A stretch of DNA of 44,450 nt from a virus, in UHGV virus genome UHGV-0157893, one strand, 5' to 3'. The notes under the pieces were generated by a model that was not told where the DNA came from, ran no database searches, and was given only the letters and a program-made list of their open reading frames with translations. Position numbers and translations under genes: made by a program. Positions 2,704 through 44,108 of this stretch are shown one piece after another. Every line of letters begins with the position of its first letter. The stretch's first letter is position 1.

Positions 2704-2737
2704 ATAAAAAAACGGGGCTTATGCCCCGTTTTTTTAT
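2704..2737. terminator. Bidirectional rho-independent terminator
   Basis: acggggc-ttat-gccccgt hairpin flanked by an A-run (2706-2711) and a T-run (2730-2736); ends both the plus-strand moron and gene J. Confidence 0.7.
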
Positions 2738-5700
2738 GCTGTCGTTGATGTTCTAAATGATCCGGTGCCTCTTGCTACTATCATTGTTGGAGAATACAAC
2801 GCGGTACAATATGCGTATCCTTCAGATGATGATGTTTGAGGACAATATATTTTCCCGATAATATCTGATGCTTTTAAACCAGAAAAAGCGCATTGCACTG
2901 TTAATGTGCATCCACCATAAGGCACGTAATATGAAATTGTTTTGTTTTTATCTCCGCAACTAAACGTTACGTTATAAGTGGATCTATATTCACCAGACAT
3001 TAATGAAATAGTCGCCATAAGCATAACTGATTTCGTCAATGCATTATCCGTGCTGTCTTTATATGTGATGGTTGCGCTATAACTTCCGTTATGCCCAAGC
3101 ACTCGATCTGGACCAACCCCCATGTTAGCAACGTCACCGACAAATGACTTTGCCTCTACTGTACCTTTAAACTTCCCGCTTGTGGCCTGAATCTCACCAG
3201 TGAATTTACCAGATGTTGCGTACACCGTACCGCGTACAGTGACGTTGTTGAACTCCGCATTGCCGTTTTTATTTAGCATCCAGCCAGCCGAACCAGCTTT
3301 ATAGTTGGTTGACTGAATTTGCTGCGCAATCTTCGCGGTAGTGATTGATGCGTCTCTGATCCACGCATCACGGATGTAGCAAGCACCGTTAGTAACATAG
3401 AACGGGGTCTGATAGGAGCCACCTGCCGCAGTCATAAGCACGAAACGGTCAACGAGGAAAATACACTGCGATTGAACGTTAGTCCCGCTACCAGTAAGGC
3501 CGAGCGACATTCCTGTAGCGTATTTCATACCGTTTTTATCAGTGGCAATCTTAATTGAATATGACGCATCAACGTTACCTTTGAAGTCAGTCAGTGCTTT
3601 TGATGTCGTTTCTATCGCCGTTGTGTTTCCGTTAATAGTTACTTTCAACTGGTCGATTCTGGTTGACAATGCCTCGTCTGCCGTTGCCATAGCCTGTGAC
3701 CATTCCGTGATGCTTGAGTTTACATCGTCGAAAGATGCCGAGATCTGGCCAAATTTTTCCGCGCTTGATGTTTCATGCGTAGAAAGTGCAGTTGACACTT
3801 CGGATACTTTCGAATTAATCGTACTGGTAAGCGATGAGTTAAGGCTGCTGATTGCGTCAGTGCGTGCATTCTTCTCATCTGCGATCGCTTTATCCATCCT
3901 GGTTACGTTGCTTGTCACCTTGCTATCGAGCGTGGAAATTGACGCATTAACCCCGCTAATAGCTTCTGCGCGTGCGCTCGCCTCATCTGCGATTGCTTTA
4001 TCAAGACGGGAAACGCTCGCGTCGGTTTTGCTTTCAAGACTACTGACGCTGGCGTTAACGTTGCTAATAGCTTCTGCGCGTGCGCTCGCCTCATCTGCGA
4101 TTGCTGTGTCTACCCTTGCTATTTCCGCTTTTGTTTTTGTTTGTCCTTTCCTGTATTTCGCCTCAATAACAGTGCTCATCTTGCTTTGCGCCATTGAGTT
4201 ATTAATAAGCGCCAGAGATGCGTTTTGCAGACTTGCTTTCGCCTGATCTATCTCGTCGCTGTTTTTATCAACCTCACTTTTAACGCCGCCAAGCGTCGCG
4301 CTGATACCTGATATCGCCTGAGCACGTGCGCTTGATTCATCAGCGATAGCTTGATCAAGACGGCTAACACTGGCATTTGTGTTATTTTCAAGCGTTGTTA
4401 AATCAGCTTTAACCACTGTTATTGCGTCGCTTCTTGCCTGCGTTTCATCTGATATTGCATTATCGAGGCGCTTAACGCTGGCGTCAGTTTTCTTGTCAAG
4501 TGTTGAGATACTTGCGTTCACGTCGCTGATAGCCTGAGTACGCGCACTTGTTTCGTCTGCAATTGCCTGATCAAGACGGTTTACGCTGGCGTCAGTTTTC
4601 TTGTCAAGATTGCTTATTGAGGCATTTACACCGTTAATAGCTTCAGCGCGGGCGCTGGCCTCGTCAGCTACTGCGCGTTGCACATTAGAGATCTGACCTT
4701 TAAGGTTTGTGTCCATCACATTCATTTCTGCCGTGATGGTTTCCAGTGATTCCGCTGTCGCTTTTTTCTCTTCAGCGATAACGTTGTCAATGCGGTCAAT
4801 TTCCGCTTTCGTCTCTGTCCTGCCTTTCTTGTACTGAGCGGTAAGAGTTACGCGAGTGTTAGTCTGTGCAAGCGAGTTATTAATAAGAGCAAGTGAGGCG
4901 TTTTGCAGACTTGCTTTTGCTTGCGCCAGTTCGCTGCCAACTTTTTCGCTAGACACCTCCAGCGAGTCGATTCTCGACTCATGCTGTCCAATATCATCGG
5001 CGTTTTCCTTAACTTTTTTATAAAGATCTTCCGTTTCTTTTTTGAGCGTATCAGTATCAGCTTTTATTGATCCTGTTTCTATGGTTAGGTTGTCAGTTTC
5101 AGTCCTTAAATCGTCAGTTATGTTGGTCAGATTATCAGTTGCAGCTTTGAGGTTGTCAGTAGCAGTTTTAAGGTCATTCGTAGCGCTTTCGATAAGATCA
5201 GTGCGGTCGCCTAGATCTTTAATGTCACCAACCATTTCTTTAAATTGTTTGGAATTCATTACGTCTTTGGTGACGTAATCGGTAATTTCATCAAAGTTTT
5301 CTGTTGGCTTACCTGACGCTTCCACAAAGTCAGACACACCAAAAGCGTTACGCGCGCGCACATAAACGTAATATGTGTGACCTGTATTCATGCCGCCAAA
5401 CGTCCACTGATGACCACGCCCGGTATATTGTGCTTTAGTGGTTATTGATGCCGGATCAGTGATCTGCGTTTCACCTGAGTAATAAAACTCGTAACTGGTA
5501 TCAGTGGTGAGCGTTGTTCTGCTGATCGGGTAAACTGTAGCCTGGAATACACCGGGAACCCAATTAACGCCAACTGGGGCCGCTGGTGCGCCAATAACCA
5601 GATCGACAATGCTTTCCGCACCCTTCATGCCCGTGTCATTTCTGCCACGAATGCCTAATGAGTAGTTGCCAGCATCAATGCCATAAAAATCATAACTGTA

Positions 5701-7704
5701 ATTCGTGGTTTCGTAGCTTTTAACTACAGCGCCTTCGGCGTTATACACGCGAATCTCAAAGGTCAGGCGACGCGTTGTCGTCTGTGTTTCCCATGTTGCG
5801 CGACATTGAACCGTTTCAGATCCAACGTTTAACACCTTCAGATTTTCAATGTTCGGCACGCGGAAGTGATTAAGCGTGTCGTTATTGATCTCGAAGATTG
5901 CGCCATTATCGACTACGGCCTGCTTATGTGGATCATGCTGTGCGGCCTCGATGGTGTATACGCTGTTATTTTCTGTTTCTGCTACACTGGTGATTCGACA
6001 TAAAACGGGTTTTGCTGCGTTGGTTGATACAGCAAAAACAGTGCCGTTACGAATCCACGCCGGGGCGGCTGCAAGGGTGATAATGTTCCCGTTAACTCCG
6101 ATGATCTGGTGTTTTTTAAATTTACCATCGCTATCAAGTAAGCTGATGGTGTCGCCAGCCGCGATATATTCAGAATCAACCTTGTCGACCGTGATCGCTC
6201 TGCCATTGTTCGCCACGATGCGACCGCCTAAACGAGCGCCTGCGCGATTATTATCGAGGATCTCGATTATATCCCCCGGCGTAAAGTGAATGGCGTCACG
6301 GGCCATTTTAAATGTGAATTTTGACGGCTCGCGTTTCGCTGTTTCGATCAGCCATTTACCAGCGCGGTGCGCTTGCCCGCGTGAAGTGCAACCGAACGCC
6401 TCCAACGTGGTTTCGTTATAACCATCACGGGCGATTAGTTTATCATCTGCGACATATTCTTTTGATTGCTCCCAGCCGTTTTCAGGGTCAGTCCAGGATA
6501 CGATCACGGCGTTGTAGCATTCTGCGCGTGCGATACTTGAACGAGTAAACGCGCCATCAACGACGTTTGCATTTGTGATGGTGGCGATTGGATCTTGTGG
6601 CGCATCAATCATCACGGTAAGACGTTGTCCGTCCCATAACGCGATACCACGGAACATACCTGCGATGTTATCCAGTAGGTCGCGGGCGCTCATTTGCTCC
6701 GTAATGTAAGCGTTAAGCGTCATGCGAGGTTCAAGGCCACCATAGCCATCATCAACCAACTGATCGCAGTATTGAGAAAGCACGTACAAAGCGCCATCAT
6801 CAACATCAATGTAACCAGCATGTCGAGCAAGTCCAAAGCGCTCGTTTTTAACCAGATACCGGAAAAGCCATGCAGGGTTATTGGTATACGCCTTTTTAAA
6901 TCCACCAAGCCATAAACCTGAATATGTGCGCGTTTCAGGGTTGTAGTTGTCAGGCACATCAACAATCAGGCCGCGAAGGTGATAGGTGCGGGTAGGCGTA
7001 TCAGTATACTGATCATGGTCAATTACGGCGCCAGCTACAGCGGTATGAGGATAAGACAGATTATCATCTATTATTTCGCTGTAACTACTCCACCGCGTAT
7101 CATTCCGCAATAGATCGCCGTTGCTGTCTGGTGTTATGCGACGAACGCGAATATCAAACGGTTTTTCATCCGGCGCTTTAATGATGTGAGCTTCCAGGTA
7201 TTCACCGCTTTGTTTACCAGGGCCAATGTGTATGTCTTTAATCAGCGACCACGTAGAAGATGATGACGGTTTAACATCAACCATCAACATGACGGATGTA
7301 TTATATTGATTGCCCTTTTCATCTGACTGAACGAGAGCATCAACACCAAGATTCAACCTGACGCGGGTAACGTTTGGATCTGAAACAGTCCTGATTATTG
7401 GTGTGTCGTGAGTTACCTTTGCGTTGACAATAACGGTTGACTCAATGGCGTTAAAACCATTAATCGGCGATTGGTCAGCCGTGCCGTTGCGCCAGGCTAT
7501 ACTAATCCCCGGAATTGATGTATTCCCGTTTGCGTCAGTAACAGGAGTGTCATTAAGCATCACGTCATTCAATGGCGCTTTCTGGTTTACCGGACCGTAT
7601 ATCGGCCCTTCGCTGAGAATATCTAAAACACGATAAAACTGTTTGTGATACAGGTTATCGTTCAATAATGTTGGTGTTTTGGCTTTGCCGCCGCCGCTAC
7701 TCAT
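2734..7704 (-). CDS. J: Host specificity / central tail fiber protein (lambda gpJ family) with long C-terminal extension
   Basis: 1656 aa; ATG 7704 with AGGAG RBS; N-terminal half aligns by eye with lambda J (ILSEGPI, YHLRGL, YCDQ.VDDGYGG.EPR); C-terminal part has coiled-coil repeats and a distal domain. Confidence 0.9.
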   Translation of the reverse strand: MSSGGGKAKTPTLLNDNLYHKQFYRVLDILSEGPIYGPVNQKAPLNDVMLNDTPVTDANGNTSIPGISIAWRNGTADQSPINGFNAIESTVIVNAKVTHDTPIIRTVSDPNVTRVRLNLGVDALVQSDEKGNQYNTSVMLMVDVKPSSSSTWSLIKDIHIGPGKQSGEYLEAHIIKAPDEKPFDIRVRRITPDSNGDLLRNDTRWSSYSEIIDDNLSYPHTAVAGAVIDHDQYTDTPTRTYHLRGLIVDVPDNYNPETRTYSGLWLGGFKKAYTNNPAWLFRYLVKNERFGLARHAGYIDVDDGALYVLSQYCDQLVDDGYGGLEPRMTLNAYITEQMSARDLLDNIAGMFRGIALWDGQRLTVMIDAPQDPIATITNANVVDGAFTRSSIARAECYNAVIVSWTDPENGWEQSKEYVADDKLIARDGYNETTLEAFGCTSRGQAHRAGKWLIETAKREPSKFTFKMARDAIHFTPGDIIEILDNNRAGARLGGRIVANNGRAITVDKVDSEYIAAGDTISLLDSDGKFKKHQIIGVNGNIITLAAAPAWIRNGTVFAVSTNAAKPVLCRITSVAETENNSVYTIEAAQHDPHKQAVVDNGAIFEINNDTLNHFRVPNIENLKVLNVGSETVQCRATWETQTTTRRLTFEIRVYNAEGAVVKSYETTNYSYDFYGIDAGNYSLGIRGRNDTGMKGAESIVDLVIGAPAAPVGVNWVPGVFQATVYPISRTTLTTDTSYEFYYSGETQITDPASITTKAQYTGRGHQWTFGGMNTGHTYYVYVRARNAFGVSDFVEASGKPTENFDEITDYVTKDVMNSKQFKEMVGDIKDLGDRTDLIESATNDLKTATDNLKAATDNLTNITDDLRTETDNLTIETGSIKADTDTLKKETEDLYKKVKENADDIGQHESRIDSLEVSSEKVGSELAQAKASLQNASLALINNSLAQTNTRVTLTAQYKKGRTETKAEIDRIDNVIAEEKKATAESLETITAEMNVMDTNLKGQISNVQRAVADEASARAEAINGVNASISNLDKKTDASVNRLDQAIADETSARTQAISDVNASISTLDKKTDASVKRLDNAISDETQARSDAITVVKADLTTLENNTNASVSRLDQAIADESSARAQAISGISATLGGVKSEVDKNSDEIDQAKASLQNASLALINNSMAQSKMSTVIEAKYRKGQTKTKAEIARVDTAIADEASARAEAISNVNASVSSLESKTDASVSRLDKAIADEASARAEAISGVNASISTLDSKVTSNVTRMDKAIADEKNARTDAISSLNSSLTSTINSKVSEVSTALSTHETSSAEKFGQISASFDDVNSSITEWSQAMATADEALSTRIDQLKVTINGNTTAIETTSKALTDFKGNVDASYSIKIATDKNGMKYATGMSLGLTGSGTNVQSQCIFLVDRFVLMTAAGGSYQTPFYVTNGACYIRDAWIRDASITTAKIAQQIQSTNYKAGSAGWMLNKNGNAEFNNVTVRGTVYATSGKFTGEIQATSGKFKGTVEAKSFVGDVANMGVGPDRVLGHNGSYSATITYKDSTDNALTKSVMLMATISLMSGEYRSTYNVTFSCGDKNKTISYYVPYGGCTLTVQCAFSGLKASDIIGKIYCPQTSSSEGYAYCTALYSPTMIVARGTGSFRTSTTA
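3840..4700 (-). repeat. In-frame tandem repeats (~108 bp, 36 aa units) inside J
   Basis: Near-identical DNA blocks (agcttctgcgcgtgcgctcgcctcatctgcgattgc at ~3961 and ~4071, variants near 4311, 4531, 4641) encoding TDASVxRLDxAIADExSARxxAISxVNASISTLDxK units. Confidence 0.6.
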
Positions 7705-9629: not shown

Positions 9630-9758
9630 TTTCTCACCTTGTCATTCTGTGATCTGCGTCACGCTAAATCATACCAAAATGGATTGATCGCGGTTTTTAC
9701 AATATGTATATTTTACTCAAACGGAAGCATAGTTAACAAAATGGCGCGGAGGTGCGTT

Positions 9759-9947
9759 ATGACTGAAAAGCTATGGAAGTTGACGGTATTCATGACAGAC
9801 GGTAGGGAAAAGGTTATCGCCCTGTATGACGACGAGGGTGAAGCATTGGTTGACGCGCTTTTACTTGCTGAGGATGACCGCCTTTTGGGATACCAGATCG
9901 AACCTGTCAAATATGAGGCTAACAAAAATGAAAAAATACAGTCTTGA
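9759..9947 (+). CDS. Hypothetical small acidic protein (moron cassette gene 1)
   Basis: ATG 9759 with GGAGG RBS 5 nt upstream; 62 aa; opposite strand to tail genes; 3' end overlaps the next gene. Confidence 0.5.
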   Translation: MTEKLWKLTVFMTDGREKVIALYDDEGEALVDALLLAEDDRLLGYQIEPVKYEANKNEKIQS

Positions 9948-10275
9948 TGTGTGGTTAAGTGGTAGCAAGGAGTGTTTCGGATTATTTGATAGCGAAGAAG
10001 TAGCCCTGGAAGAAGGCAGGATTCTTGAATGTAGTTTAGGCCATCCAGTGAAATATGCTGCTAATCCGGTACATATAGTTGATGAGGTGGAAGATATGAA
10101 CCCGAAAGATATTAATGGTAGCTTCACTGCTTATTATGCAGATTCTATGGACCAGTCTTGCCCTGGTGAAATACACGCAAAAGGTTTCCCGGCTGACGAT
10201 CCAGAAGCAAAACGCGAATACGAAAAAGCGGCGAAAGATTTCTGTATCGATAACCTTTCAGCATTCGATAAATAA
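9928..10275 (+). CDS. Hypothetical protein (moron cassette gene 2)
   Basis: ATG 9928 (MKKYSLDVW...), 115 aa, overlaps gene 1 out of frame (translational coupling). Confidence 0.55.
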   Translation: MKKYSLDVWLSGSKECFGLFDSEEVALEEGRILECSLGHPVKYAANPVHIVDEVEDMNPKDINGSFTAYYADSMDQSCPGEIHAKGFPADDPEAKREYEKAAKDFCIDNLSAFDK

Positions 10276-10284
10276 GGCGGCAAC

Positions 10285-10533
10285 ATGGGGCGGCGCAATC
10301 ACGGTGATTATGTGTACACGTTGAAACAGGCCGCCCGCCTCATCGGTTATCATGAACACGAATTTATTGATTTGCTGATTGAGCGCGGGATACTGTACCA
10401 GGTCTGTTTAACGCTGTACCCGAAAGCGAAATACCTACATGAAAAGTTATTCATCATCATGACGGATGAAAACCAGGTTAACCATTCATTCGTCACTGAT
10501 AAGGGCGTTAATTATCTGCGTGATAACTTATAG
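10285..10533 (+). CDS. Hypothetical protein with putative helix-turn-helix (moron cassette gene 3)
   Basis: ATG 10285 with AAGG RBS; YTLKQAARLIGYHEHEFIDLLIERGIL resembles excisionase/MerR-type HTH. Confidence 0.45.
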   Translation: MGRRNHGDYVYTLKQAARLIGYHEHEFIDLLIERGILYQVCLTLYPKAKYLHEKLFIIMTDENQVNHSFVTDKGVNYLRDNL

Positions 10534-11318: not shown

Positions 11319-11409
11319 TATAGCTAGTTTACAAAATGGCTTCACATAGCACGCAACAAGATGTATATAGAAAGCAAGAAGAAAGTAGTACCAACGAAGG
11401 AGGCCCAAA

Positions 11410-11565
11410 ATGAAACGCTATGTAGTAGTAATGCTAAATAACGCATTCGAACAAGTGGAAATAGCAATCGTTAAGGGTTTCGACGACGCATTCAAATACG
11501 GTCAATTCATGATGAATGCGAAAGAAGATGAATACCGGGACTTCTTCCTGAAGGCACTTAACTAA
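11410..11565 (+). CDS. Hypothetical small protein (51 aa; below ORF-track cutoff)
   Basis: ATG 11410 preceded by AAGGAGG; MKRYVVVMLNNAFEQVEIAIVKGFDDAFKYGQFMMNAKEDEYRDFFLKALN; stop 11563-11565. Confidence 0.5.
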   Translation: MKRYVVVMLNNAFEQVEIAIVKGFDDAFKYGQFMMNAKEDEYRDFFLKALN

Positions 11566-11582
11566 GGATGATGGGGTGAGTT

Positions 11583-11837
11583 ATGAAACTGGTAGCGATT
11601 GACAGAAATCTGAAAGCACAGAAAAACGCACAGGATCGGATCATCAAGAAAGGTAAGGAATTACTTAAAGCCTTTCTGAGAAAAGAAGTTTACCCCAAAA
11701 AGTTACGCGACGGTTACGGATACAAAATGGATATCAATCTTGATTGGAGGCTGTTTAGCGAAGATTTGAAGGTTTGGTTAATTGTTGAGCACCATGCCTA
11801 TAACAAGTTATGTGGCGTGAAAGGCACTCATAAGTGA
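11583..11837 (+). CDS. Hypothetical basic protein
   Basis: ATG 11583 with GGGGTGAG RBS; 84 aa, Lys-rich N-terminus; co-oriented with the preceding small gene. Confidence 0.5.
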   Translation: MKLVAIDRNLKAQKNAQDRIIKKGKELLKAFLRKEVYPKKLRDGYGYKMDINLDWRLFSEDLKVWLIVEHHAYNKLCGVKGTHK

Positions 11838-11894: not shown

Positions 11895-11928
11895 ATAACC
11901 CCGGCATTGCACCGGGGTTTAGTTTATT
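11895..11928. terminator. Bidirectional terminator
   Basis: CCCCGG-cattgca-CCGGGG hairpin (11899-11917) with a T-run after it on plus and an A-run before it; ends the plus-strand cassette and the tape-measure gene. Confidence 0.6.
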
Positions 11929-14266
11929 TGCGGCGAGGTTGCAACATTCCGCCTGGTCTTTGAGATTCCCTTGTTATCATTTTCATGGCTACACGTTCCA
12001 TTGTTAATTCAAGTCTGCGGCTGTCTTCGTCGCTGAATCCGTTCGTGGTCTGAATGCTGATACTGACAGGCATACTAATACCGCCACCGCCGCCAATATC
12101 ACGGCCCGGAATAACTCTGCCGTTCTCGCCAGGGATCATATATTGATTGCCGTTAGATGTCTGGAATAGCTCCGGCCTGTTGTGTTCCCCTACGCGGTAC
12201 ATATTACCACCAATGACGCTACCACCATTAAAGCGACCGCCGCCGAAAATTGACGTAGCCAGCGACATGATCGCAGTGAGCGCCGCCGAACCAGCCGCCG
12301 CCCAGCTACCGCCAGTTGACGCCGCAGTTGCCGCCGCTGCTGGGGCCGCCGCCGCAGCAATGCTTCCCTGAGCTGCTACCGCGCTTGCTGTTGTACTTGT
12401 TTGCGTGGCCTTGCTTTGTGTCTCCATCATGATCTGATCTGCTATCCAGTTTGCAGCTATGTCTGAGAGTCTGTTACCGATATTGCCGAGTATATTGCTT
12501 CCTAAGTTAGCAAAAACATCACTCAATGATTGAGTGCCGTTTAACAGGCCAACAAGCGCATTACTCATTCCGCCTTTAAGGCCATTAACACAATCACCGA
12601 TAAGGCCGTTTGTGTCGCTTTGCGCCTGCCATTGTTCCCATTTCAGATCGCGGATCTGTTGCTCATAGGCTAACAATTCCTGTTTCTGTTGCGCTTCAGT
12701 AGCGCCCAGGTCTATAAGCATTTGCTTACGGATGGCCCATTCATTTTGCGCCTGCTGGATGGGGTCAACTTCGCCTTTTAGCTGATCCATCGGGCTTACT
12801 ATTTGTGACCATTTATCACGCAATTCATCTACCGGAATTTGTGCTAATTCTTCTTTCAGTTCCTTGCCGATCCCTTTTTGCGCGGCGCGGTACTCAAGGA
12901 GCGTGATTTTACCCTGGGCAAATGCAGCATCAATGGCCTTGCCGTTCTCCAACGCTTTGCGCATGGCGGCGGCGTCTTTGTTGTACTGATCAGAAACGCT
13001 TATACCTTTGTCACCAAGCCGATCAGCTTCCGATTTCTTCTCTTTTTTCTGTTTTTTCGGCTTGTCTACTGGCTTGTCGAATCCGGTAATCGCTCCGTCA
13101 TTGGCAGCATTCTGTTCATTTTTCCTTGCTTCTTCTGTAGCCTGGATTGCTGCGGTCAGATCATCCTGTAGTTGCATGACCTTGCCAACGGTCTTCCCGT
13201 ATTTCTTCTCGTAGTTGCTGTTATATTCGTCGGTTTGCTCTCCTACTACCTCCTTCATCCATTTATAGCCATCCATTAGCGCCTTGATTGGCGTCACCAT
13301 TGCGATGATCTTCTCTGCCACCTCTCCAGCCTTAACAGCCACATCATCAAACATGTCGATAAATTCGCTACCAGCCGTTTTGAGTGTGTCGAAGCAGGTT
13401 TTAGCGAATTTAGCGCCATCGCCAAGCCCTTTAACGCCTTTCGTGATCAAGTCGATAGCTGAAACAACGCCATCTGACACGCCAAAAAGATCATCCAACT
13501 GCTCAACAAGGCCCATAATTTCTACTTTAAGCTCATTGATAGCCATGCCGGATGTGCGCGGCAACTGAGCAAACTTATCGTTTGTTTCCTGCGTAGCCGC
13601 CTGTATTGCGTTAACCATCCTTTCAGCCGTGATCTTGCCGTCCAGCATTTCGGCGCGGAACTGGCCCATTGATAATCCCATATGGCGGGCCATTGTTTGT
13701 ACGATGGTCGGCGTATTTTCAAGCAGGCTGTTAAATTCTTCGGCACGAAGAACACCGCCGTCGATAGACTGACGGAATTGACGCATTGAGTTAGACATCT
13801 GTTCCGCTGACGCGCCGCCTAATGCACCCATTTTCTGAATAGTGCCAACCAGGTTAAGCAATTGCCCTTCCGTAGCGGAGGTGTTTTTTAGTGAGATAGC
13901 CAGGCCTTGCCATAATTCGCCAGTATCTTTCAGGCTCTGCCCCGTCTCCCTGGATATTGCTTTCAGGCCGTCGAAAACCCGTCCGGCGGACTCCGCATCG
14001 CCCGTAAGCATTTTGATTTTTACGCGAAGCATTTTTGCTTGCTCCGCCATATCCATAAATTGGCGCACAGCCTCCGCAGCAATTAGCAGATGGATAACCC
14101 TGGTCAGTGCCTTGATGGATGTTTTCAGGGTGTTTACCTGGCGGTCAGCCTGTTTTGCGCCGCGCTCTATACGATCAAAGGCCTGGTCTGCCTGTCGTTG
14201 TGCAACGAGAAGTTGACCAGTTTTCGCATCAACTTCGTAATAAATTGTACCTACACTGGTAGCCAT
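11924..14266 (-). CDS. H: Tail tape measure protein
   Basis: 780 aa; ATG 14266 with GAGGT RBS; helical Ala/Gln-rich body; glycine-rich C-terminus; sits between tail chaperone and M. Confidence 0.85.
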   Translation of the reverse strand: MATSVGTIYYEVDAKTGQLLVAQRQADQAFDRIERGAKQADRQVNTLKTSIKALTRVIHLLIAAEAVRQFMDMAEQAKMLRVKIKMLTGDAESAGRVFDGLKAISRETGQSLKDTGELWQGLAISLKNTSATEGQLLNLVGTIQKMGALGGASAEQMSNSMRQFRQSIDGGVLRAEEFNSLLENTPTIVQTMARHMGLSMGQFRAEMLDGKITAERMVNAIQAATQETNDKFAQLPRTSGMAINELKVEIMGLVEQLDDLFGVSDGVVSAIDLITKGVKGLGDGAKFAKTCFDTLKTAGSEFIDMFDDVAVKAGEVAEKIIAMVTPIKALMDGYKWMKEVVGEQTDEYNSNYEKKYGKTVGKVMQLQDDLTAAIQATEEARKNEQNAANDGAITGFDKPVDKPKKQKKEKKSEADRLGDKGISVSDQYNKDAAAMRKALENGKAIDAAFAQGKITLLEYRAAQKGIGKELKEELAQIPVDELRDKWSQIVSPMDQLKGEVDPIQQAQNEWAIRKQMLIDLGATEAQQKQELLAYEQQIRDLKWEQWQAQSDTNGLIGDCVNGLKGGMSNALVGLLNGTQSLSDVFANLGSNILGNIGNRLSDIAANWIADQIMMETQSKATQTSTTASAVAAQGSIAAAAAPAAAATAASTGGSWAAAGSAALTAIMSLATSIFGGGRFNGGSVIGGNMYRVGEHNRPELFQTSNGNQYMIPGENGRVIPGRDIGGGGGISMPVSISIQTTNGFSDEDSRRLELTMERVAMKMITRESQRPGGMLQPRRK

Positions 14267-14393
14267 GATTTAACCTCATGCAAAAATGTGATCTGTGTAT
14301 CTATTTTATACAAAATGGCTTTACTTCAATGACTCCATTTTGTATAAGGAAGCTAAAGGGAATGGTCAGTAAATCAAGTTAGCGTGGTGGGTT

Positions 14394-15053
14394 ATGAAAC
14401 GGTTAGCAAAAGTGGCAATGATTGCGGCGGTATTGGGTCTGGTTGGTTGCAATGAGGATAATGAAAAAGCGCCTATAGTGACCAATCAAGAGCAACAAGC
14501 ATTAGCAGAGAAAAATGCTAAATGGCTTGCAGAACAACAAGCAAAACAAGCCGCATACGATGCACAGTTAGAAAAAGAAAATGCTGGTAAACAGTGGCTT
14601 GTAGTTGAAAGAAAAGATGATATGCAGGACGCAAAAAACGTATTCCTTTTTGTGAAAGCAGAACAATTCAGCGGAAGTCTTGATGCTTTCCCGACACTGA
14701 AGGCACAGGATAAGAATAAACCGGTATTAACAATCGCTTGCCAGGGTAATAAAACAAAAATGTTCGTAGCATGGTCACACCATGTAACTGACGCCGGGGA
14801 CACTACTTATATTAACTACCGGATCGGCGTTCACAAAGCTGTAGCTACTGAGTGGTGGCGGTCAACTAATTATAAAGCTCTTGGATTATGGGACGGCAAA
14901 AAAGCCATCCCAATGATTAAAAAACTGGTTAACGAAAAACAATTCATCATTGAAGTAGTGCCGGAAGCTGGCGACATTGAGAAAGCAGTGTTTAACATTG
15001 ATGGTCTTTATAACCACATCGACAAAGTGAAAAACGCTTGCAACTGGAATTAA
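14394..15053 (+). CDS. Lipoprotein (moron; candidate superinfection-exclusion or envelope factor)
   Basis: ATG 14394 with GGTGG RBS; signal peptide with lipobox LVGC; 219 aa; plus-strand island in the tail module. Confidence 0.6.
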   Translation: MKRLAKVAMIAAVLGLVGCNEDNEKAPIVTNQEQQALAEKNAKWLAEQQAKQAAYDAQLEKENAGKQWLVVERKDDMQDAKNVFLFVKAEQFSGSLDAFPTLKAQDKNKPVLTIACQGNKTKMFVAWSHHVTDAGDTTYINYRIGVHKAVATEWWRSTNYKALGLWDGKKAIPMIKKLVNEKQFIIEVVPEAGDIEKAVFNIDGLYNHIDKVKNACNWN

Positions 15054-15063
15054 GGGGTAAATC

Positions 15064-15438
15064 ATGAAAAAAATAATCAAAGCGGTTCTCATTGGTGTTA
15101 TGGCTTTAGCTCTTACAGGGTGCGCAAGATCAACTGATTTCGTTAAGTTAGCTGATAAAAATTTGCAAGTTGGAATGACTTGTGAGCAAGTGAATAAAAT
15201 AATGGGGGAACCACAAAGAATCGAGCATGACGGTAATTATAGTTATCACGTATGGTATTCAGTAACCAGCACGATAGGATTTACTTACATGGATGTTGAA
15301 GAATTATCCCCTTCAAGGGTTATCGCAAAGTTTGATAACTGCATCCTAAAAGAATGGAAAGATCGCAGTAAGGCAAAGTCTGTATACAATACAATCACAC
15401 ACAGTTCACCAGGTACAGCAATTAAAGATTTCAATTAG
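15064..15438 (+). CDS. Lipoprotein with BamE/SmpA-OmlA-like motif
   Basis: ATG 15064; lipobox LTGC; LQVGMTCEQVNKIMGEP resembles the BamE fold signature; 124 aa. Confidence 0.55.
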   Translation: MKKIIKAVLIGVMALALTGCARSTDFVKLADKNLQVGMTCEQVNKIMGEPQRIEHDGNYSYHVWYSVTSTIGFTYMDVEELSPSRVIAKFDNCILKEWKDRSKAKSVYNTITHSSPGTAIKDFN

Positions 15439-16129
15439 CAAAACGCCCGGATCTACCGGGCTTTTCTTGCTCACGATTTTTCATTCTTTCTAGTGCCTTT
15501 TTAGCGGCCTCCATTTGCTCGTCATAAGCACGTTTATTTATGTGAATGTTTGGCTTACTTTTCTCGTTTCTTTCGTCTGGCGGCGTTTTAGCGCGTACAG
15601 CGGCCCTATATCCGGTCATTGTCATATTCCATGCTTCCGATTCTGACAAGCCCAGGTGAGCAACGGCAGAATAGACGAATTCAAGGACGTTAAAAGTCGG
15701 CTTATATTCCCCTTCCGGGATTTCCCCGGACTCTTCTTCCGGGCCATCACCAATAAGACCGTGGTACATGCAGTGCTGCGCAAGCGTGATGATATCCTCG
15801 ATCGGCATTAATCCGGGCTTTAACTTTAACTTACCCGAAGGAGTAAACCAGCATTCGCCCAATAACGGGCCTATTTCGTCGTCTGAGCAACATTTCAGGA
15901 TGTGCATTGATGTCTGAACTATTTCACCATAACACCGCGCCAGAATGCGATTGCGTAGGTCTGGATCTGCTGGCAATCGTGATGGATATTTGCCGCCGTG
16001 GATAAGTGCGAAATATTCGACAAGCTCACTATCGTTGCCGATTTTAGCCATCGCAGCAAAGCAAGGATTAAACTCATAGCGCTTACCGTTCACCACGGCA
16101 GCAAATTGTCCTGTACGAACATGGATCAT
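15431..16129 (-). CDS. Putative tail assembly chaperone
   Basis: ORF track start at 16138 is GTG; ATG at 16129 with AAGGTGA RBS; position between major tail protein and tape measure; acidic C-terminal region. Confidence 0.45.
   Translation of the reverse strand: MIHVRTGQFAAVVNGKRYEFNPCFAAMAKIGNDSELVEYFALIHGGKYPSRLPADPDLRNRILARCYGEIVQTSMHILKCCSDDEIGPLLGECWFTPSGKLKLKPGLMPIEDIITLAQHCMYHGLIGDGPEEESGEIPEGEYKPTFNVLEFVYSAVAHLGLSESEAWNMTMTGYRAAVRAKTPPDERNEKSKPNIHINKRAYDEQMEAAKKALERMKNREQEKPGRSGRFAN
15445..15468 (+). terminator. Rho-independent terminator after the lipoprotein pair
   Basis: gcccgg-atcta-ccgggc followed by ttttctt. Confidence 0.6.
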
Positions 16130-21354: not shown

Positions 21355-22279
21355 ATTTAGCGTGCGCAACCTTATAGTTTTCTTGCGCCCGATCTAATAT
21401 TCGTTTGTTTAATATGTTACCGTCTTCGTCAACCAATACGGTAATCGTGCTACATTTGCAGTTAATTGAATTTGGGGATCTGCTCCACCATTCGCGCTGC
21501 TCATCTATGGTGTATGTTTTCCCGTGCCGCTGCGCGTGCGATAGCCTGGTAGTCGGTGACAATGCCGAAATGTGCATTTGCATGGTGCGCAGATTAAGCT
21601 CTTCTGTCGCCGCTTCTGCCTCATCCATACGCGCTGTGCGTAACGCTGTGCATATTTCAGTTCGGGCAATACGTTTGCACCTGTATAGCGGCAATTGCGT
21701 TTCCTGCTGCAATGTGCGCGCTATTTCCAGTGGATTTAAACCACGGGCCATCCCTTCGGTTAATCGCCGGGCCATATCCTTCTTGATCTGTGCTGTTAGC
21801 CCGCGCATTTCCTCAAATACACGGGTACGAACAAGGGCAAGGCGCGTGCGGTAAGTCGTACTTGATAGCACGGCGGATACATCAGGATAAGCGCTTGAGT
21901 AAGTAACAGACTGGTTGGCAAGGTTGGCGTATTCCTGTGCCGTGCCGCGCTGATATGCCACCTTCACGTATTCCTGCCAAAACCAAAAACTTTCCGGGTC
22001 GGTTAGCTCGAATATCTCATCAATCATGTCGCTGGCGTCCTCCAGCATGTCGTGCAATTCATCCATGTAAATCTGGAAGGTGTATTTCTTATTAACAGCC
22101 AGGCTATATTGTATTCTGTCCAGTATGGCGATATATGGATCGGCTATTTTCTTCAGGCAGGATTTGAAACGCTTAATAGCTCCCGACCGTAACTTACCTG
22201 TCATGGTCGGGTCTTCGGTGTTAGATGGCATTATCGCGGCGGGAGGTATTCGCCTGATTATTTTCTTCACCTTCATCAT
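21335..22279 (-). CDS. Head morphogenesis protein (SPP1 gp7 / Mu F-like minor head protein)
   Basis: ATG 22279 with GAGGA RBS; 314 aa; position right after portal. Confidence 0.6.
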   Translation of the reverse strand: MMKVKKIIRRIPPAAIMPSNTEDPTMTGKLRSGAIKRFKSCLKKIADPYIAILDRIQYSLAVNKKYTFQIYMDELHDMLEDASDMIDEIFELTDPESFWFWQEYVKVAYQRGTAQEYANLANQSVTYSSAYPDVSAVLSSTTYRTRLALVRTRVFEEMRGLTAQIKKDMARRLTEGMARGLNPLEIARTLQQETQLPLYRCKRIARTEICTALRTARMDEAEAATEELNLRTMQMHISALSPTTRLSHAQRHGKTYTIDEQREWWSRSPNSINCKCSTITVLVDEDGNILNKRILDRAQENYKVAHAKYGEDWE

Positions 22280-23591
22280 CGTTTTCCTCTTCCATTTCCA
22301 CTACACTGGCTGGGCCATCGTATCCGGCAGCCTCGCGGATCTCGTCACCGCTAAATATTTCTTCACCAGTAGCCAGGCAAGCCTGATTGATTTGCGCCAT
22401 TTTGTGTGCCGCTTCCAGTAGTTCGGCTTTGGTCATGGCGTTAAGGTCGTCCCACAGTACAGATACGTCTACTGGCATACCGATAAGGCGGAGATTTGCC
22501 ATCTTGCGGAATAGTTCTTCAAGCTCGCCTCCTATTTCCTCGCGGCGGGTCATACAGCGATTATTGAAGTAGCGGAGGTCTTCAGTTGATGCGCGTTCAC
22601 CCTGCTGATTCCCAACCAGGATACGCGTCGGGATGTCGATACCAGCGGCGGCAGTTTGCAGGTTGACGTCATAGGTTGCAGATGGATCGGCTACGGCAGT
22701 CACCAGCGGGCTAACACTTGCCCCTTGTAATGCCATCATCACATCATTACCCCTGTTCATTTCTGCTGCTGCCTCGTTGAATTTCTCGCGTAGCTCTGTA
22801 ACGTCGCAATCGTATGTTGCAGCCAGGGAACGGAAATCAATCTCTTTATCGAACGAGATAGCCAGTTGACGCGCGGCATTTTTCAGGAATGACTCACCGC
22901 TGCCGCCTTCCACTTTCTCCAGTGACACAAAGGCGTTATAGGAAGGCTCAAGGAAAGCGATGGCATCATCAGAATAGTCGCCAAATATGAATATGCGATC
23001 AGGGTGGATCTTTCTCGCAATGGTCTTACTGTTAATGCGTTCTTTGTATTCCCACCATGTTGGCAGGCCATAGTTTTCTTTATCCGGGTTTTCTTCGAAG
23101 TCCTTCGGCGTAAGAGCACCAGCCCACACAGGGGTGAATTTGGCAATGCCTACGCCTTTTGTTACTGGCTGATCCCACGGCTTATTATCTCTGACATGAA
23201 TTAACAGGCCCGCATAACGACCGATGAGGCGGCGGCGATCGCATTCAGCTATGACGCGCCAGAAACGATTATCAAATTGCTTTTTAATTTCTCTTTCCCA
23301 CGGCGTTTCCGTTTCTGCTTTCTCGTCTTCCGTACCTTCAATCAGCGTTGGCCTGGTGCGCCAGCACGTAGTAATGATCTTCTCAATGGCACCGTGAGCG
23401 ATACCACCGCGACGATACAGCTTGTAAAGATCTTCATAGGTGATTTCTTCTTTGAATCCGTATTCACTCCACGCAGCGTCACGTTTTGCATCAATACCCA
23501 TTGAGAATGGGTTAGCGGCTGCATAGCGGGCAAAGGCCGCCTGGCGTTGTGACAAGGCAGCATTAACCGCCAATTCTAAATTGGATGGCAT
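22221..23591 (-). CDS. Portal protein
   Basis: ATG at 23591 with AGGAG RBS (the earlier ATG at 23612 lacks an RBS); 456 aa with acidic C-terminus; directly downstream of terL. Confidence 0.7.
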   Translation of the reverse strand: MPSNLELAVNAALSQRQAAFARYAAANPFSMGIDAKRDAAWSEYGFKEEITYEDLYKLYRRGGIAHGAIEKIITTCWRTRPTLIEGTEDEKAETETPWEREIKKQFDNRFWRVIAECDRRRLIGRYAGLLIHVRDNKPWDQPVTKGVGIAKFTPVWAGALTPKDFEENPDKENYGLPTWWEYKERINSKTIARKIHPDRIFIFGDYSDDAIAFLEPSYNAFVSLEKVEGGSGESFLKNAARQLAISFDKEIDFRSLAATYDCDVTELREKFNEAAAEMNRGNDVMMALQGASVSPLVTAVADPSATYDVNLQTAAAGIDIPTRILVGNQQGERASTEDLRYFNNRCMTRREEIGGELEELFRKMANLRLIGMPVDVSVLWDDLNAMTKAELLEAAHKMAQINQACLATGEEIFSGDEIREAAGYDGPASVVEMEEENDDEGEENNQANTSRRDNAI

Positions 23592-23669
23592 AATGTTTAC
23601 TCCTGAATACATGTTTACGCGTTGCTACGCGAAAAATAGAAAAATTAGTGAGTGATTGTGAGGCAGATT

Positions 23670-25148
23670 TTAAAATCCGCGCAGGCGCTTAGGTAACATG
23701 AGGCCCATTGCCTGCGGCTGGCTTAATTCAGTGATACCCCATACCATTGCGTCGAGGCGGTCAGGTGATTTTTTAGCGGTAGCTGGAACGTATTCCATCA
23801 TTTGATTTTCCAGCGTGTACAGGCTGCCTGTGTGGGCCACCCTTCCCTGTGCATACAGTGCCGATATTGGCTCGGCGCGGGCGAATTTACCCTTGCTTGC
23901 GTGCACCTTAACAATGCGGCCTTTGAATCCGGCGTTACGTAGCGTGGCCTCTGCCATTTCGCCGCCCTGGTTTGTTTCGATAACTATCGCGTCAGCTTCA
24001 TGGATGTTGTAGGCGTTCATTGATGCCTGCGCCCAGTCGTTAGGAGACATACGGCCTGAGTAGTCGCCATCAACAGAATACTGAGCATTTTTACCGCCAC
24101 CGTAAGCGGAACATGCAACGATCCCCGTTTCGTCCGATTCTTCCGATGATGTTGTAGCCGGGTCGATAGCTATTACCGTGCGGATCTTGTCCTGCGTTAT
24201 CTGCATCCGGTGCGCTGCGGTTATCATGGCTTCAGTCCACAATGCACCCTCTTCGTCGAATTTACGCGGGCGCTGCATGTACTGGGCCTCGAATGACCGC
24301 CTGTGTGCTTTCAGTCCAGCTTCATGAATGTCATTGTGCTTTTTAGGCCACAGCCATCCATCAGGCAGGTTGTGAGGAATGGGTATTGCGAACTCGTTTT
24401 CAGGGTACAAATCCCTGTAGTCAACGCTATTGTCGATCTTCACTGGCAGGTTAAGGTGATACCACTTCTCACCGCTTCCACCTCGTAACAGGTAGCCGGA
24501 CAAATCATCGTAGTGGATGCGCTGCATGATGACGATAACAGGCGTTGTTTGCACTGCCAGACGTGAAGCAAGTGTGTCGTTATAGTTTGTGTTTACCTGC
24601 TTTCTCACCACGTCAGAGTAAGCGTCAGCGGGTTTTAATGGGTCGTCGATGATTAACGCGCCGTTAAATCCCGGCTCCATATACCCAGCACGGAACCCAG
24701 TTACCTGGCCCAGCGATGACGTTGCATACACGCCGCCACCGTATTCAGTCCACCACATCGATTTCGAGTTGGCATCGTTGCGGATCTTCATGGGCCACAT
24801 TGCCTGATAGTCAGGCGTACAGATCATGTTTCTTACAGTCGAGGAATTGAGTAACGCCAGGTTGTTGGAATAGGAAACGTGAAGGAATCTTGTGCGGGGA
24901 TTTATTGCGAGGGACCGCGCCATCATGTTGATGGTAGCGATCATGGTTTTACCGTACCCTGGGGGAATGTTAATGATGAGGCGGGTTATCTCACCATTAA
25001 TAACGCGTTGTAGTGCATCGCGGATAGCTATGTGATGACCTGAGACAAACATCTTCGTACCGTTTGCTTGCTTGTAGAAATAGCGGTTGAAAAACAGGCC
25101 ATCGTTTTCACATTTGGACTGAATAACTCGTTCTTTGATTGTCAACAT
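23670..25148 (-). CDS. terL: Terminase large subunit
   Basis: ATG 25148 (track start is GTG 25154), GAGGTG RBS; Walker A-like PPGYGKT, Walker B-like LIIDDP, C-terminal nuclease-type acidic motifs. Confidence 0.85.
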   Translation of the reverse strand: MLTIKERVIQSKCENDGLFFNRYFYKQANGTKMFVSGHHIAIRDALQRVINGEITRLIINIPPGYGKTMIATINMMARSLAINPRTRFLHVSYSNNLALLNSSTVRNMICTPDYQAMWPMKIRNDANSKSMWWTEYGGGVYATSSLGQVTGFRAGYMEPGFNGALIIDDPLKPADAYSDVVRKQVNTNYNDTLASRLAVQTTPVIVIMQRIHYDDLSGYLLRGGSGEKWYHLNLPVKIDNSVDYRDLYPENEFAIPIPHNLPDGWLWPKKHNDIHEAGLKAHRRSFEAQYMQRPRKFDEEGALWTEAMITAAHRMQITQDKIRTVIAIDPATTSSEESDETGIVACSAYGGGKNAQYSVDGDYSGRMSPNDWAQASMNAYNIHEADAIVIETNQGGEMAEATLRNAGFKGRIVKVHASKGKFARAEPISALYAQGRVAHTGSLYTLENQMMEYVPATAKKSPDRLDAMVWGITELSQPQAMGLMLPKRLRGF

Positions 25149-25150
25149 AA

Positions 25151-25636
25151 TCACACCTCGTCTTCTACTTCCTGGACGATGCGGGCGATCTCTTCTTTCG
25201 TGACTTCAACCTGAACGGGCGCTTCTTCCTTGTTGCCGACGATCTCCTGTGTGACGCGTTCGCCGTATTTGCGCGGCTGAAGTTTTGCCAGTAGCCACTT
25301 GCGCGTTTCAATCATTAGTTGGTGGCGTCGCAACTGATCTTTATCTGCGTTCTCTGCTGCATCAGCCAGATCGATGATTTCATCAGCCAATACCTCGAAG
25401 CCGATCTCCTTCGCGCGCGCGTACATGATCGAGAATTCCGGTACATCCCTAAACCATTTCAGGATTGTGGAACGGGTAGGCATACCAGGCATTTTCGAAA
25501 TTTTATTAATACTCTGACCATCCGCCACCAGTTCACAGATTTCTAATGCTTTTTCTTCGGTATAACCATGCGGACGGCCCACCTTTTTAGCGGCTGGCTT
25601 TTTATCGTCAGCCTTTGCCTTTTTAGTGCGGGCCAT
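25151..25636 (-). CDS. terS: Terminase small subunit
   Basis: ATG 25636 with GAGGTG RBS; Lys-rich N-terminus then HTH-like KALEICELVADGQSINKISK; stop abuts terL start. Confidence 0.7.
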   Translation of the reverse strand: MARTKKAKADDKKPAAKKVGRPHGYTEEKALEICELVADGQSINKISKMPGMPTRSTILKWFRDVPEFSIMYARAKEIGFEVLADEIIDLADAAENADKDQLRRHQLMIETRKWLLAKLQPRKYGERVTQEIVGNKEEAPVQVEVTKEEIARIVQEVEDEV

Positions 25637-26967: not shown

Positions 26968-27450
26968 TTATTCTTTGCGTAAGCACTGCGTTTTGATGTA
27001 GTCCTGTAGGCCAGTGATCTGTGCGTCTTTCGTTTTTAGTTGTTCTCTGAGGGATAGATAAGCTGATTCAGCTGATTTAGAGAGTTGGCAGGTGGCTCCA
27101 TCAATGCGGCTGGCGGTTCCTGCGGAGTCGGACACTCGCACGGGTATTGCGTTGACGCGCAGCCTGATAGTGCCGTTATCAATGCCAGTGCGCAGATCGG
27201 CAATGTCAGATCTGATAGCTTTAATCTCATCGTGATACCTCTTATCAAGTTTTGACAGTTCGGCGTTTCGCTCCTTCATCTGCTGAATAGTGTTACTTGC
27301 TGTTTTCAGTGCGCCTTGCGTGGTCGTTAATTCTTCCTGTAACCTTGTCGCCTCACTCTGGTAATGGCATGTTACGGCTGTAAGGCTGGCAATGATGCAA
27401 ACAACAGCGGCGATAATTAACGCCTTCACCTTGTCCACGTTTCCCCCCAT
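26968..27450 (-). CDS. Rz: Spanin, inner membrane subunit (Rz)
   Basis: Track start TTG 27456; ATG 27450; N-terminal TM helix then coiled coil; follows endolysin. Confidence 0.75.
27036..27230 (-). CDS. Rz1: Spanin, outer membrane lipoprotein subunit (Rz1), embedded in Rz
   Basis: ATG 27230 with AAGAGGT RBS; lipobox LSGC; Pro-rich mature region; fully inside Rz in another frame. Confidence 0.7.
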   Translation of the reverse strand: MRLKLSDLTLPICALALITALSGCASTQYPCECPTPQEPPAALMEPPANSLNQLNQLIYPSENN

Positions 27451-29932: not shown

Positions 29933-30182
29933 CCGGCCCCTAGTTTTATTCGTCTTTGTCTCCTTTAAATCCCAAACACTCCGCGTATTCGTCAATGCTT
30001 AATGCTTCTTCACCTGGTGCCAGCAATTCAAAGTAGCGGGCGTATAGTTCAAAAACCCATGCCGGATATTTAGCGTTAGCGTTCATCTTCTTACCTCCCA
30101 TTCGTCTTTCCGTGGCTTATATGTAACAAAATGGCACTGCCTAAACAATGCCATTTCGTAAACTTTGTGTGGTAGATCACAT

Positions 30183-35255: not shown

Positions 35256-35376
35256 AATGCTCCCTCCCTTTAAGGTGATTTCTACGCATTTCAGCGCTGC
35301 CGGATTTTTAAAGAGCATTTCGTTTGCTTGAAGTATACAAAATGGATACACGTAAACAAGACGAAAAGCGCCATTA

Positions 35377-35392
35377 TGTGACCTGTATCACA
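35377..35392. promoter_or_regulatory. Perfect TGTGA-N6-TCACA palindrome (CRP-consensus-like) in 160-bp intergenic region
   Basis: tgtgacctgtatcaca at 35377-35392, flanked by inverted copies of the GTATACAAAATGG / CCATTTTGTAAAC motif. Confidence 0.4.
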
Positions 35393-38867: not shown

Positions 38868-38966
38868 CTTGTTTTCCTCCGTGCCGTAAACCTTTTGATT
38901 TCGGTTTACAAAACGGATACGCGATCACAACACAAAATGTATATTTATGTGATCGCAATCACGCTG

Positions 38967-42750: not shown

Positions 42751-43003
42751 CTTAACATCTTTCAACTAATCCCGCAATCATCGCCGTTCCCGGCGTGACC
42801 TTGCTCACTCCAAGCAAGCTGACTCGTCGCCTTGCGTGCGGTTTCGTGGGGGATGTAACGCTTTAAACACCCCATGCGCCTTGTTATCAGTGCCGCTTTC
42901 GGTCCCCCATCGGGGAGTTACTCCACGGTTGACAAGGTGTTAAGCCTGATTTTTAAAGTGCCAGGAAGTTGCTTTTGTTACCTGCGCCCTTCCTTTGACT
43001 CGC

Positions 43004-43032
43004 AATATACGCCCCGTAAAACATCGAGTCAA
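43004..43032 (-). promoter_or_regulatory. Strong sigma70-type leftward promoter (PL candidate) within an inverted repeat
   Basis: Minus strand TTGACT, 17 nt, TATATT; overlapped by inverted repeat TTGACTCG...CGAGTCAA (42995-43032) and abutted by the CCATTTTGTATAC motif (43034-43046). Confidence 0.55.
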
Positions 43033-43124
43033 TCCATTTTGTATACTTTTTTAAAATATTTTATATGCCATTGATATTTAAATAATAAATAACGTTTTCT
43101 GTTTACGTTTTGGTGTTTTCCAGG

Positions 43125-43803: not shown

Positions 43804-44108
43804 GTCGCTACCCTATAACCTCAAAAAGTTTGATGCAAGTCACAAAACGTGTATTTTAAGCCTTGATCTTAAAATTCCATTTTGTAAACTTGCAGACAAG
43901 GTAAGGCCATACTTGCAAAGACGCAAGGAAAAAGATAACGGAAGGCACAAAAAGGCACTTACCTTAAGCTCTTTAAAAATCCGGTGTCGCTGCGAAGCGA
44001 AAAACAAATATCACGCAACGGCGGGATCTGTTGAGCGGTCAGTCACTGCTATCTAATGCTAATGGGATGCCCGCCCGCGCGTTCACTCTAACCATAGGAG
44101 AAAACACG

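Follow-up and report, generated by a model that had tools for sequence, protein, structure and literature searches.

Two independently assorting lipoprotein genes in a cargo-swapping slot of the tail module of an Escherichia coli prophage

The virus genome UHGV-0157893, a stretch of 44,450 nucleotides that we analysed as a whole and refer to as the window, carries two adjacent lipoprotein genes, here called A and B, on the plus strand of a tail module whose late structural genes are encoded on the minus strand. The best explanation that we can offer, and one towards which we lean only slightly, is that A and B encode two independent, periplasm-facing lysogenic-conversion proteins carried in a moron-type cassette at a recombination hot spot of the mEpimmI phages. 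The edges of this cassette are fixed and belong to the phage backbone, the genes between the edges are exchanged from one relative to the next, and A and B travel both together and apart. A preliminary description of the window, made from its letters alone, had recognized two plus-strand lipoprotein genes with a promoter and a terminator between tail genes, and our analysis bears out two exported lipoproteins in a self-contained accessory unit lying antisense within the tail module. It had also likened them to the own-receptor blockers Cor and T5 Llp, an analogy that our analysis does not support, and the comparison with relatives shows that A and B are not a pair. Moreover, it overlooked the fact that A is a member of the VasI/TagO family.

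Results

As judged from its sequence, the window belongs, as a prophage, to the mEp021 (mEpimmI) group, whose members are Nus-dependent, non-lambdoid E. coli phages, and the start of the tape measure gene together with the promoter region upstream of A matches mEp021, mEp010/013/044/554 and MagusPhagus at 86–92%. The whole A/B locus is 99.8–99.9% identical across nine complete E. coli chromosome records, one of which, strain 2017C-4173W12 with its annotation from the Prokaryotic Genome Annotation Pipeline (PGAP), served as the source of our gene map. A and B occur together in 14 of 5,426 complete E. coli genome records, and Shiga-toxin-producing isolates are among them.

Gene A (14394–15053, +) encodes a lipoprotein of 219 residues whose product starts MKRLAKVAMIAAVLGLVGC followed by N, and gene B (15064–15438, +) a lipoprotein of 124 residues whose product starts MKKIIKAVLIGVMALALTGC followed by A. 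The signal peptides and lipoboxes (LVGC and LTGC) of the preliminary description stand up to a rule of the PROSITE PS51257 type, which asks for K or R in the first seven residues, an uncharged h-region, a lipobox of the form [LVI][ASTVI][GAS]C and a cysteine at position 15–35: A passes with MIAAVLGLVGC and Cys19 and B with IGVMALALTGC and Cys20, each having three K/R in its first seven residues. Besides these two, the only lipobox open reading frame (ORF) in the window is that of the o-spanin at 27036–27230 (−). At the +2 position A has Asn and B has Ala, neither of which is the Asp retention signal, and on the strength of the signal sequence and the general +2 rule both proteins are predicted to reside at the outer membrane, on its inner face. 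Compared with homologues at 56–95% amino-acid identity, the ratio of nonsynonymous to synonymous substitution rates (dN/dS) is 0.21–0.24 for A and 0.07–0.16 for B, with the qualification that in the comparison at 56% identity synonymous sites are saturated and the ratio is not computable. Since these values lie between 0.07 and 0.24, A and B are real genes under purifying selection. The B start codon lies 10 nucleotides past the A stop codon and has its own ribosome-binding site, and for this reason the two genes are probably co-transcribed.

The slot that holds A and B is bounded by two backbone genes. On the left is the tape measure protein gene (11924–14266, −; Pfam TMP_3 at 1.1e-49; phrog_1538), and on the right is a DUF6246 gene (15431–16129, −; Pfam PF19759 at 2.2e-54, and also named so by PGAP). 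The location between a tail assembly chaperone gene and the tape measure gene was thus correctly described at the outset, with the reservation that DUF6246 would be the chaperone by its position and not by any family match. The DUF6246 gene converges on B and overlaps its 3′ end by 8 nucleotides, and the C-termini of DUF6246 proteins vary among relatives that carry different cargo.

Comparison with relatives drawn from cultured phages, IMG/VR contigs and assemblies revealed six different cargo sets in this same slot. The left anchor, TGTGATC...TATACAAAATGG-N16-CCATTTTGTATAA, hardly changes among nine related loci that differ in their cargo; the right anchor, a GCCCGG-loop-CCGGGC hairpin with a T run, situated within the DUF6246 3′ end or just beyond it, is found in eight compared loci whatever the cargo. 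Between them may lie A plus B (in the window, in 10 IMG/VR contigs and in the 14 E. coli genome records), A followed by a 106-residue cytoplasmic protein without a signal peptide (loci L019–L022, L024, L025 and L027), A alone (L008 and L028), a periplasmic protein of 138 residues either alone (gp63 of mEp021, and MagusPhagus) or with B (L038), a periplasmic protein of 129 residues with a B that is 64% identical (L004–L006), or a small ORF with a B that is 82% identical (mEp013). L007, whose backbone is more distant, has no slot: there the tape measure gene abuts the DUF6246 gene. Because the combinations vary in this way, A and B must be regarded as assorting independently and not as a two-part system; an obligate two-component system, considered as a candidate, was rejected on these grounds. 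Searches of the alternative cargos against Pfam and PHROGs gave no families. The mEp021 gene in this slot is not annotated as virion structural, though many of its neighbours are.

The exchange does not always respect gene boundaries. Of the nine compared loci whose slot is occupied, seven have a first cargo protein that opens with much the same signal peptide (MKRLAKV... or MKRLIKA...), and this signal peptide ends in a lipobox in A or in an AxA cleavage site in the periplasmic cargos, which means that some of the exchange junctions fall inside the signal-peptide coding region. The mEp013 locus is an exception, its first ORF beginning MKSLINK. A distant homologue of A in another backbone, one in which the tape measure gene abuts the DUF6246 gene, has kept the ribosome-binding site and the signal peptide and has a different upstream region; hence the inverted repeat upstream of A, described below, is part of the backbone and not of the cargo. 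The content of G and C (GC) is 41% in A and 37% in B, against 47.5–50% in the flanking tail genes, and at third codon positions (GC3) it is 0.33–0.38 in A and B against 0.47–0.51 in the flanks. In some relatives there is, between the repeat promoter and the first cargo, an additional mini-ORF of about 30 codons (MKN...) or an insert of 133 base pairs (L002 at about 4190–4290, L001, L024 and L038), which amounts to an optional "position 0" of the slot.

Many of these features are those of the classical morons, such as lambda bor and lom and those of the HK97 type: the A/B unit has a predicted promoter and terminator of its own, is inserted between genes that abut in a relative, has less GC than the genes beside it, codes for envelope proteins and is present in some relatives but not in others. 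It departs from them in three respects. It lies antisense to the late operon; its promoter and terminator belong to the backbone, making the slot a fixed expression and export socket; and the recombination junction can fall within the coding region of the signal peptide.

Protein A matches the Pfam family VasI (PF11319, formerly DUF3121) with 58.1 bits against a gathering score of 26.5, over profile positions 25–184 of 184, and its NCBI/PGAP name is "type VI secretion system-associated protein TagO". It resembles VasI/TagO proteins (VCA0118; PF11319, TIGR03360) in its VasI domain and its export signal, and it has a conserved C-terminal ...ACNW ending in common with the phage homologues. In contrast to the VasI/TagO proteins, it lies outside a type VI locus, with no type VI genes annotated within the 49-kb region around it; it scores 47.4 bits against the cut-off of 124.2 for the NCBIfam equivalog TIGR03360, which describes VasI of type VI loci; and it is a lipoprotein with a helical stalk. 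This last element comes from an AlphaFold model with a predicted local distance difference test score (pLDDT) of 69.7, rising to about 75–88 in the core, in which a helix of some 33 residues would follow the lipid anchor and lead into a beta-sandwich. A has two conserved cysteines, Cys116 and Cys216, and ACNWN as its last residues. A search by sequence among solved structures found no match for A or B at E-values up to 10, a scan of the GTDB species-representative genomes with the A alignment found no relative, and in PHROGs the significant matches of A and B were only to families of unknown function, none of them a defence or exclusion family.

VasI-domain genes are not peculiar to this prophage. 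They are present in 24 other cultured phage records, and the four hits that were re-scored all lie above the Pfam threshold. All of them stand at positions of the accessory kind. In P88/P2-like phages the gene adjoins the integrase gene; in Brucella phage BiPBO1 it follows the repressor gene, nine bases downstream; in a Labrenzia phage it falls within the immunity region; and in Pasteurella phage Pmp14 its neighbour is a GHKL-ATPase/PD-(D/E)XK nuclease gene. These other phage proteins carry a cleavable signal peptide and all end in ...ACNW, and Cys-rich RLxCYD repeats are present in four of the five that were examined. Among them A is, by prediction, the lipoprotein variant with a helical stalk. 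The Pmp14 neighbour (L044, 4082–6040) is 652 residues long, combines a GHKL-type ATPase domain (HATPase_c_3) with a PD-(D/E)XK/HSDR_N nuclease domain, and resembles a defence gene within an accessory island of the tail module.

Protein B contains the motif GMTxEQVxKIMGxP (more loosely GMTxxxVxxIMGxP), which produces sub-threshold matches to BamE, DUF7738 and OsmE. Its score against Pfam SmpA_OmlA (PF04355) is 18.9 bits where 23.2 is the gathering score, and covers residues 33–51 only; against NCBIfam OsmE it is 17.8 where 65 is the cut-off. The best structural matches of the B model are BamE, OsmE and BLIP-like proteins. Hence the BamE/SmpA-OmlA-like character first attributed to B appears to hold at the level of the predicted fold and does not extend to the family cut-offs of Pfam or NCBIfam. 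As a small lipoprotein with this motif and these closest structural matches, B is like the BamE/OsmE/BLIP-fold lipoproteins; it is unlike them in having a C-terminal extension, two extra cysteines and scores below the cut-offs, and membership of B in the BAM complex finds no support. Its family is very small, with 10 clusters in 5.8 billion proteins and 11 matches among 1.8 billion representatives, and its relatives have so far come almost exclusively from E. coli and Shigella prophages. A search of the viral folds in BFVD with B gave weak matches to phage lipoproteins without names. The BamE/BLIP-type fold often serves protein binding.

Upstream of A there is a perfect inverted repeat, TATACAAAATGG-N16-CCATTTTGTATA, with arms of 12 base pairs (14307–14318 and 14335–14346) and a spacer of 16 nucleotides, just as the preliminary description had it. 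The left arm stops one nucleotide before the −35 hexamer of a predicted promoter and the right arm overlaps the TATA of its −10 hexamer; conservation is higher in the arms than in the spacer in every one of the nine mEpimmI-type loci compared. Still further upstream is a block, AAATGTGATCT... (14284–14302, +), with half of a CRP-like box that is centred about 60 nucleotides upstream of the predicted start. Its TGTGAT(C) is unchanged in the nine related loci, and at this position only the left half of the box is conserved. The promoter itself, a predicted sigma70-type TTTACT-17-TATAAG (14320–14348, +), had been called near-perfect, which it is not: nine of 12 bases agree with the consensus, the T at −7 is missing, a consensus promoter scan did not report it, and on a crude sigma70 matrix it scores 6.2 bits (the 99.91st percentile of about 444,000 scored configurations) against 14.2 bits for the top promoter of the window. 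It gains its credibility from being conserved and from an architecture that is shared with other promoters, not from its match to the consensus.

This shared architecture depends on a motif that is indeed recurrent in the window, with 23 hits at up to two mismatches where 6.0 are expected and none of 100 shuffles reaching 23. In the form T[AT]TAC[AC]AAATGG it stands exactly one nucleotide upstream of the −35 hexamer in four promoters, all four of which are conserved in mEp021. These are the promoter of the A/B slot (motif and promoter together at 14307–14348, +), that of a slot with a ParE-like gene (11328–11369, +; TTCACA-17-TATATA), that of a slot between tail genes L and M (9671–9712, +; TTGATC-17-TATATT, 12.4 bits), and the best promoter of the window (43031–43048, at 43043, −; TTGACT-17-TATATT, 14.2 bits). 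Because of its place just downstream of the repressor gene, and of the nut-like boxA/boxB elements that come after it, this last promoter is probably the major early one. The motif is common to it and to the A/B promoter, so A and B could equally well be expressed early in infection or in the lysogen. One candidate role for the motif is that of an UP-like contact for the alpha subunit of the polymerase in a CRP class-I-like arrangement; another is that of a site for a phage regulator. Among other candidates, a P2 Ogr-type site, an OmpR site and a −35 or −10 element in itself were rejected by eye for misfits of spacing and register, and a repressor operator was not supported, the motif having no palindromic structure that would suit a CI-type dimer.

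At the other end of the cassette, the terminator expected downstream of the lipoprotein genes is a strong hairpin, GCCCGG-ATCTA-CCGGGC with a T run (15445–15470, the hairpin occupying 15445–15461), of −15.5 kcal/mol and z = −4.2. By prediction it works on both strands, as a bidirectional intrinsic terminator, and it falls within the final codons (...KPGRSGRFAN) of DUF6246, the convergent gene. A scan of the locus against Rfam gave chance-level matches only.

Discussion

In the explanation that we favour, the left edge of the cassette would be the backbone promoter region, with the recurrent motif arranged as an inverted repeat, the right edge would be the bidirectional terminator of the backbone, and the cargo between these fixed edges would be interchangeable. 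In this prophage the cargo would be a two-gene operon, antisense to the late tail operon, for two independent lipoproteins: A, which would hold a VasI/TagO-family beta-sandwich in the periplasm on a helical stalk, and B, a small protein of the presumed BamE/BLIP-type fold. Neither would be part of the virion, and the two would not form an obligate pair. Each may bind a component of the envelope or an incoming component of the periplasm, to the benefit of a lysogen or freshly infected cell that would be shielded from the entry of heterologous phages or from contact-dependent or periplasm-acting toxins; they would not act as a blocker matched to the phage's own receptor. Protection from heterologous invaders seems to us the likeliest benefit, and an exclusion or defence role for A and B is plausible. 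In its favour, other lipoproteins of the mEpimmI phages are known to exclude phages (PMC11893012).

Several considerations weigh against this explanation. The structure models of A and B are of moderate quality, with pLDDT about 70, and PADLOC has no family for A or B at E-values up to 1. The promoter upstream of A is weak by consensus, without the −7 T, and since the cassette has its upstream motif in common with the probable major early promoter, it could be switched on early in infection and not in the lysogen. No function is known for the VasI/TagO family, even in type VI secretion (PMC13584744), and in Vibrio cholerae VasI helps killing and not protection (PMC3166118).

The precedent closest to hand would give A and/or B a different job, that of blocking the outer-membrane receptor of their own phage in the manner of Cor, T5 Llp or Lpp021/Lpp010, which would provide homotypic exclusion and spare progeny from debris. 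We consider this improbable. The precedent is real enough: Lpp021 and Lpp010, lipoproteins of mEpimmI phages, have been shown by experiment to keep out phages that use OmpA or LamB (PMC11893012), and with these (more broadly, with Cor and T5 Llp) A and B share their character as antisense lipoproteins of the tail cluster with a small transcription unit of their own and variable carriage. Both A and B are predicted outer-membrane lipoproteins encoded in the tail module, and the motif in common with the early promoter would suit early expression like that of Llp. However, Lpp021 has 72 residues, adjoins the tail-tip gene J in mEp021 and tracks the receptor, whereas A and B are larger, unrelated to it, located in another slot about 6.7 kb or more from J, and do not track J. 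BLASTP gave no alignment of A or B to Lpp021, while Cor and Llp were not compared directly. The slot that adjoins J in this prophage lacks an Lpp-type lipoprotein, a point in favour of the receptor-blocking reading; it is occupied by the 81-residue product of 2449–2694, which has a non-lipoprotein signal peptide.

The receptor-binding C-terminus of J, in the window type and at an identity of at least 99%, co-occurs with three cargo states, namely A plus B, A without B (strain M1/5) and other cargo (GN05505), and A plus B also occur in strains GF66.2, STEC306-308 and MLI107, all of which are without the window J type, so that A plus B are associated with at least two J types. That the cargo does not track the J C-terminus argues against a blocker of the phage's own receptor; it does not argue against exclusion in general. 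In a comparison with cultured phages no J C-terminus was above 48% identity to that of the window, and the receptor could therefore not be inferred. As for the four lipoprotein types of the mEpimmI study, the text and supplements name no VasI/TagO, and types B and D are not described there (PMC11893012).

The family membership of A raises the question of a type VI role, in which A would modulate the type VI machine of the host or shield the periplasm of the lysogen and B would be an immunity-like binder of an incoming effector. Here too we judge the proposal unlikely. In its favour, A falls in the Pfam VasI family and bears the PGAP name TagO, and V. cholerae VasI (VCA0118) is exported, dispensable for the secretion of Hcp and VgrG, and required for killing (PMC3166118). 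Against it, the shortfall of A against the TIGR03360 equivalog sets it apart from the VasI of type VI loci, and no type VI or effector gene is nearby. The independent assortment of A and B does not suit such a division of labour, a match to BtiO is generic small-fold similarity, and VasI-domain genes are found in phages of hosts that have no shown link to type VI secretion. That A and B instead help the lytic cycle and do not act in the lysogen, remodelling the envelope (for instance peptidoglycan or contacts at the outer membrane) to serve the tail or tape measure, the timing of lysis or release, strikes us as very unlikely, for although their location between the tape measure gene and the gene at the chaperone position, the promoter architecture in common with the probable early promoter and its nut-like site, and the standing of BamE and OsmE as envelope-homeostasis lipoproteins would all fit, the cargo is dispensable and is swapped for unrelated proteins where the tail genes are 81–100% identical, its antisense orientation means that late transcription would collide, and its lower GC suggests a foreign origin.

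These findings are not very surprising for phage biology. The TagO homology was available in public annotation and lipoprotein morons of the mEpimmI group have been published; what is new is the slot with its fixed anchors, the finding that A and B assort independently, and the recurrence of VasI-domain cargo in temperate phages. A and B are easily testable candidates for envelope phenotypes that a prophage confers on gut E. coli. The link between VasI/TagO and phage accessory cargo offers a new handle on a protein whose type VI role has been unclear since 2011, and a slot with fixed anchors and a mostly shared signal peptide could be mined for periplasm-acting phage proteins. One can go further, into what we hold to be a doubtful generalization, and suppose that exported VasI/TagO proteins are a widespread class of lysogenic-conversion proteins of temperate phages that act on envelope-puncturing invaders, with tagO as one domesticated branch and the mEpimmI slot as a dedicated socket for periplasmic cargo. 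Were that so, VasI/TagO proteins would act in the periplasm against type VI attack or the delivery of phage genomes, the class would span phages of E. coli, Klebsiella, Citrobacter, Pasteurella, Brucella and Roseibium, and the mEpimmI socket would let periplasmic cargo be tried out with a promoter, a terminator and a signal peptide that stay the same.

Other features of the window

The A/B unit is one of four plus-strand accessory clusters that break the minus-strand tail module (2449–2694, 9639–10533, 11410–11837 and 14394–15438). The first, adjoining J, encodes the 81-residue secreted protein already mentioned; the second includes an antirepressor-like protein with a KilAC domain; and the third encodes a protein with a ParE-like toxin domain and a 51-residue partner.

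The recurrent motif also forms head-to-head pairs, ACAAAATGG-N-CCATTTTGT, at 14310–14343, 30126–30159, 35337–35379 and 43843–43885, with spacers of 16, 16, 25 and 26 nucleotides, respectively, which differ by about one helical turn. A one-strand scan observed three such pairs where 0.07 were expected. Six CRP-like TGTGA-N6-TCACA boxes are present where 1.04 were expected (9648–9663, 25140–25155, 30166–30181, 35377–35392, 38948–38963 and 43829–43844), and four of the six directly adjoin the recurrent motif. These palindromes could be sites for the host CRP or for a phage regulator.

Nut-like elements with a boxA-like GC(T/A)CTTTAAAAATC(C/A)GG are located at 43968–44004 (+), 42945–42961 (−) and 35280–35316 (−), and a boxB-like hairpin (TCGCTGCGAAGCGA) can be read solely in the copy at 43968. 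These three copies are situated downstream of the two probable early promoters and ahead of the ninG/Q region, which agrees with the extra nut site reported for the mEpimmI group. When the two immunity-flanking regions are compared, the sole long match that they share beyond an 18-nucleotide block containing the motif is the nut-like boxA.

Three further genes deserve mention. The o-spanin gene at 27036–27230 (−) is Rz1-like and nested inside a lysis-protein gene. The gene at the portal position (22221–23612, −; 463 residues) bears the PGAP label "anti-CBASS protein Acb1 family protein"; the mEp021 record names its counterpart portal protein, and the Acb1 label is probably an annotation quirk. 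Finally, J (2734–7704, −) contains at 3836–4680 seven imperfect repeat copies with a periodicity of 108 nucleotides, which match the variable repeat region described for the J proteins of the mEpimmI group.

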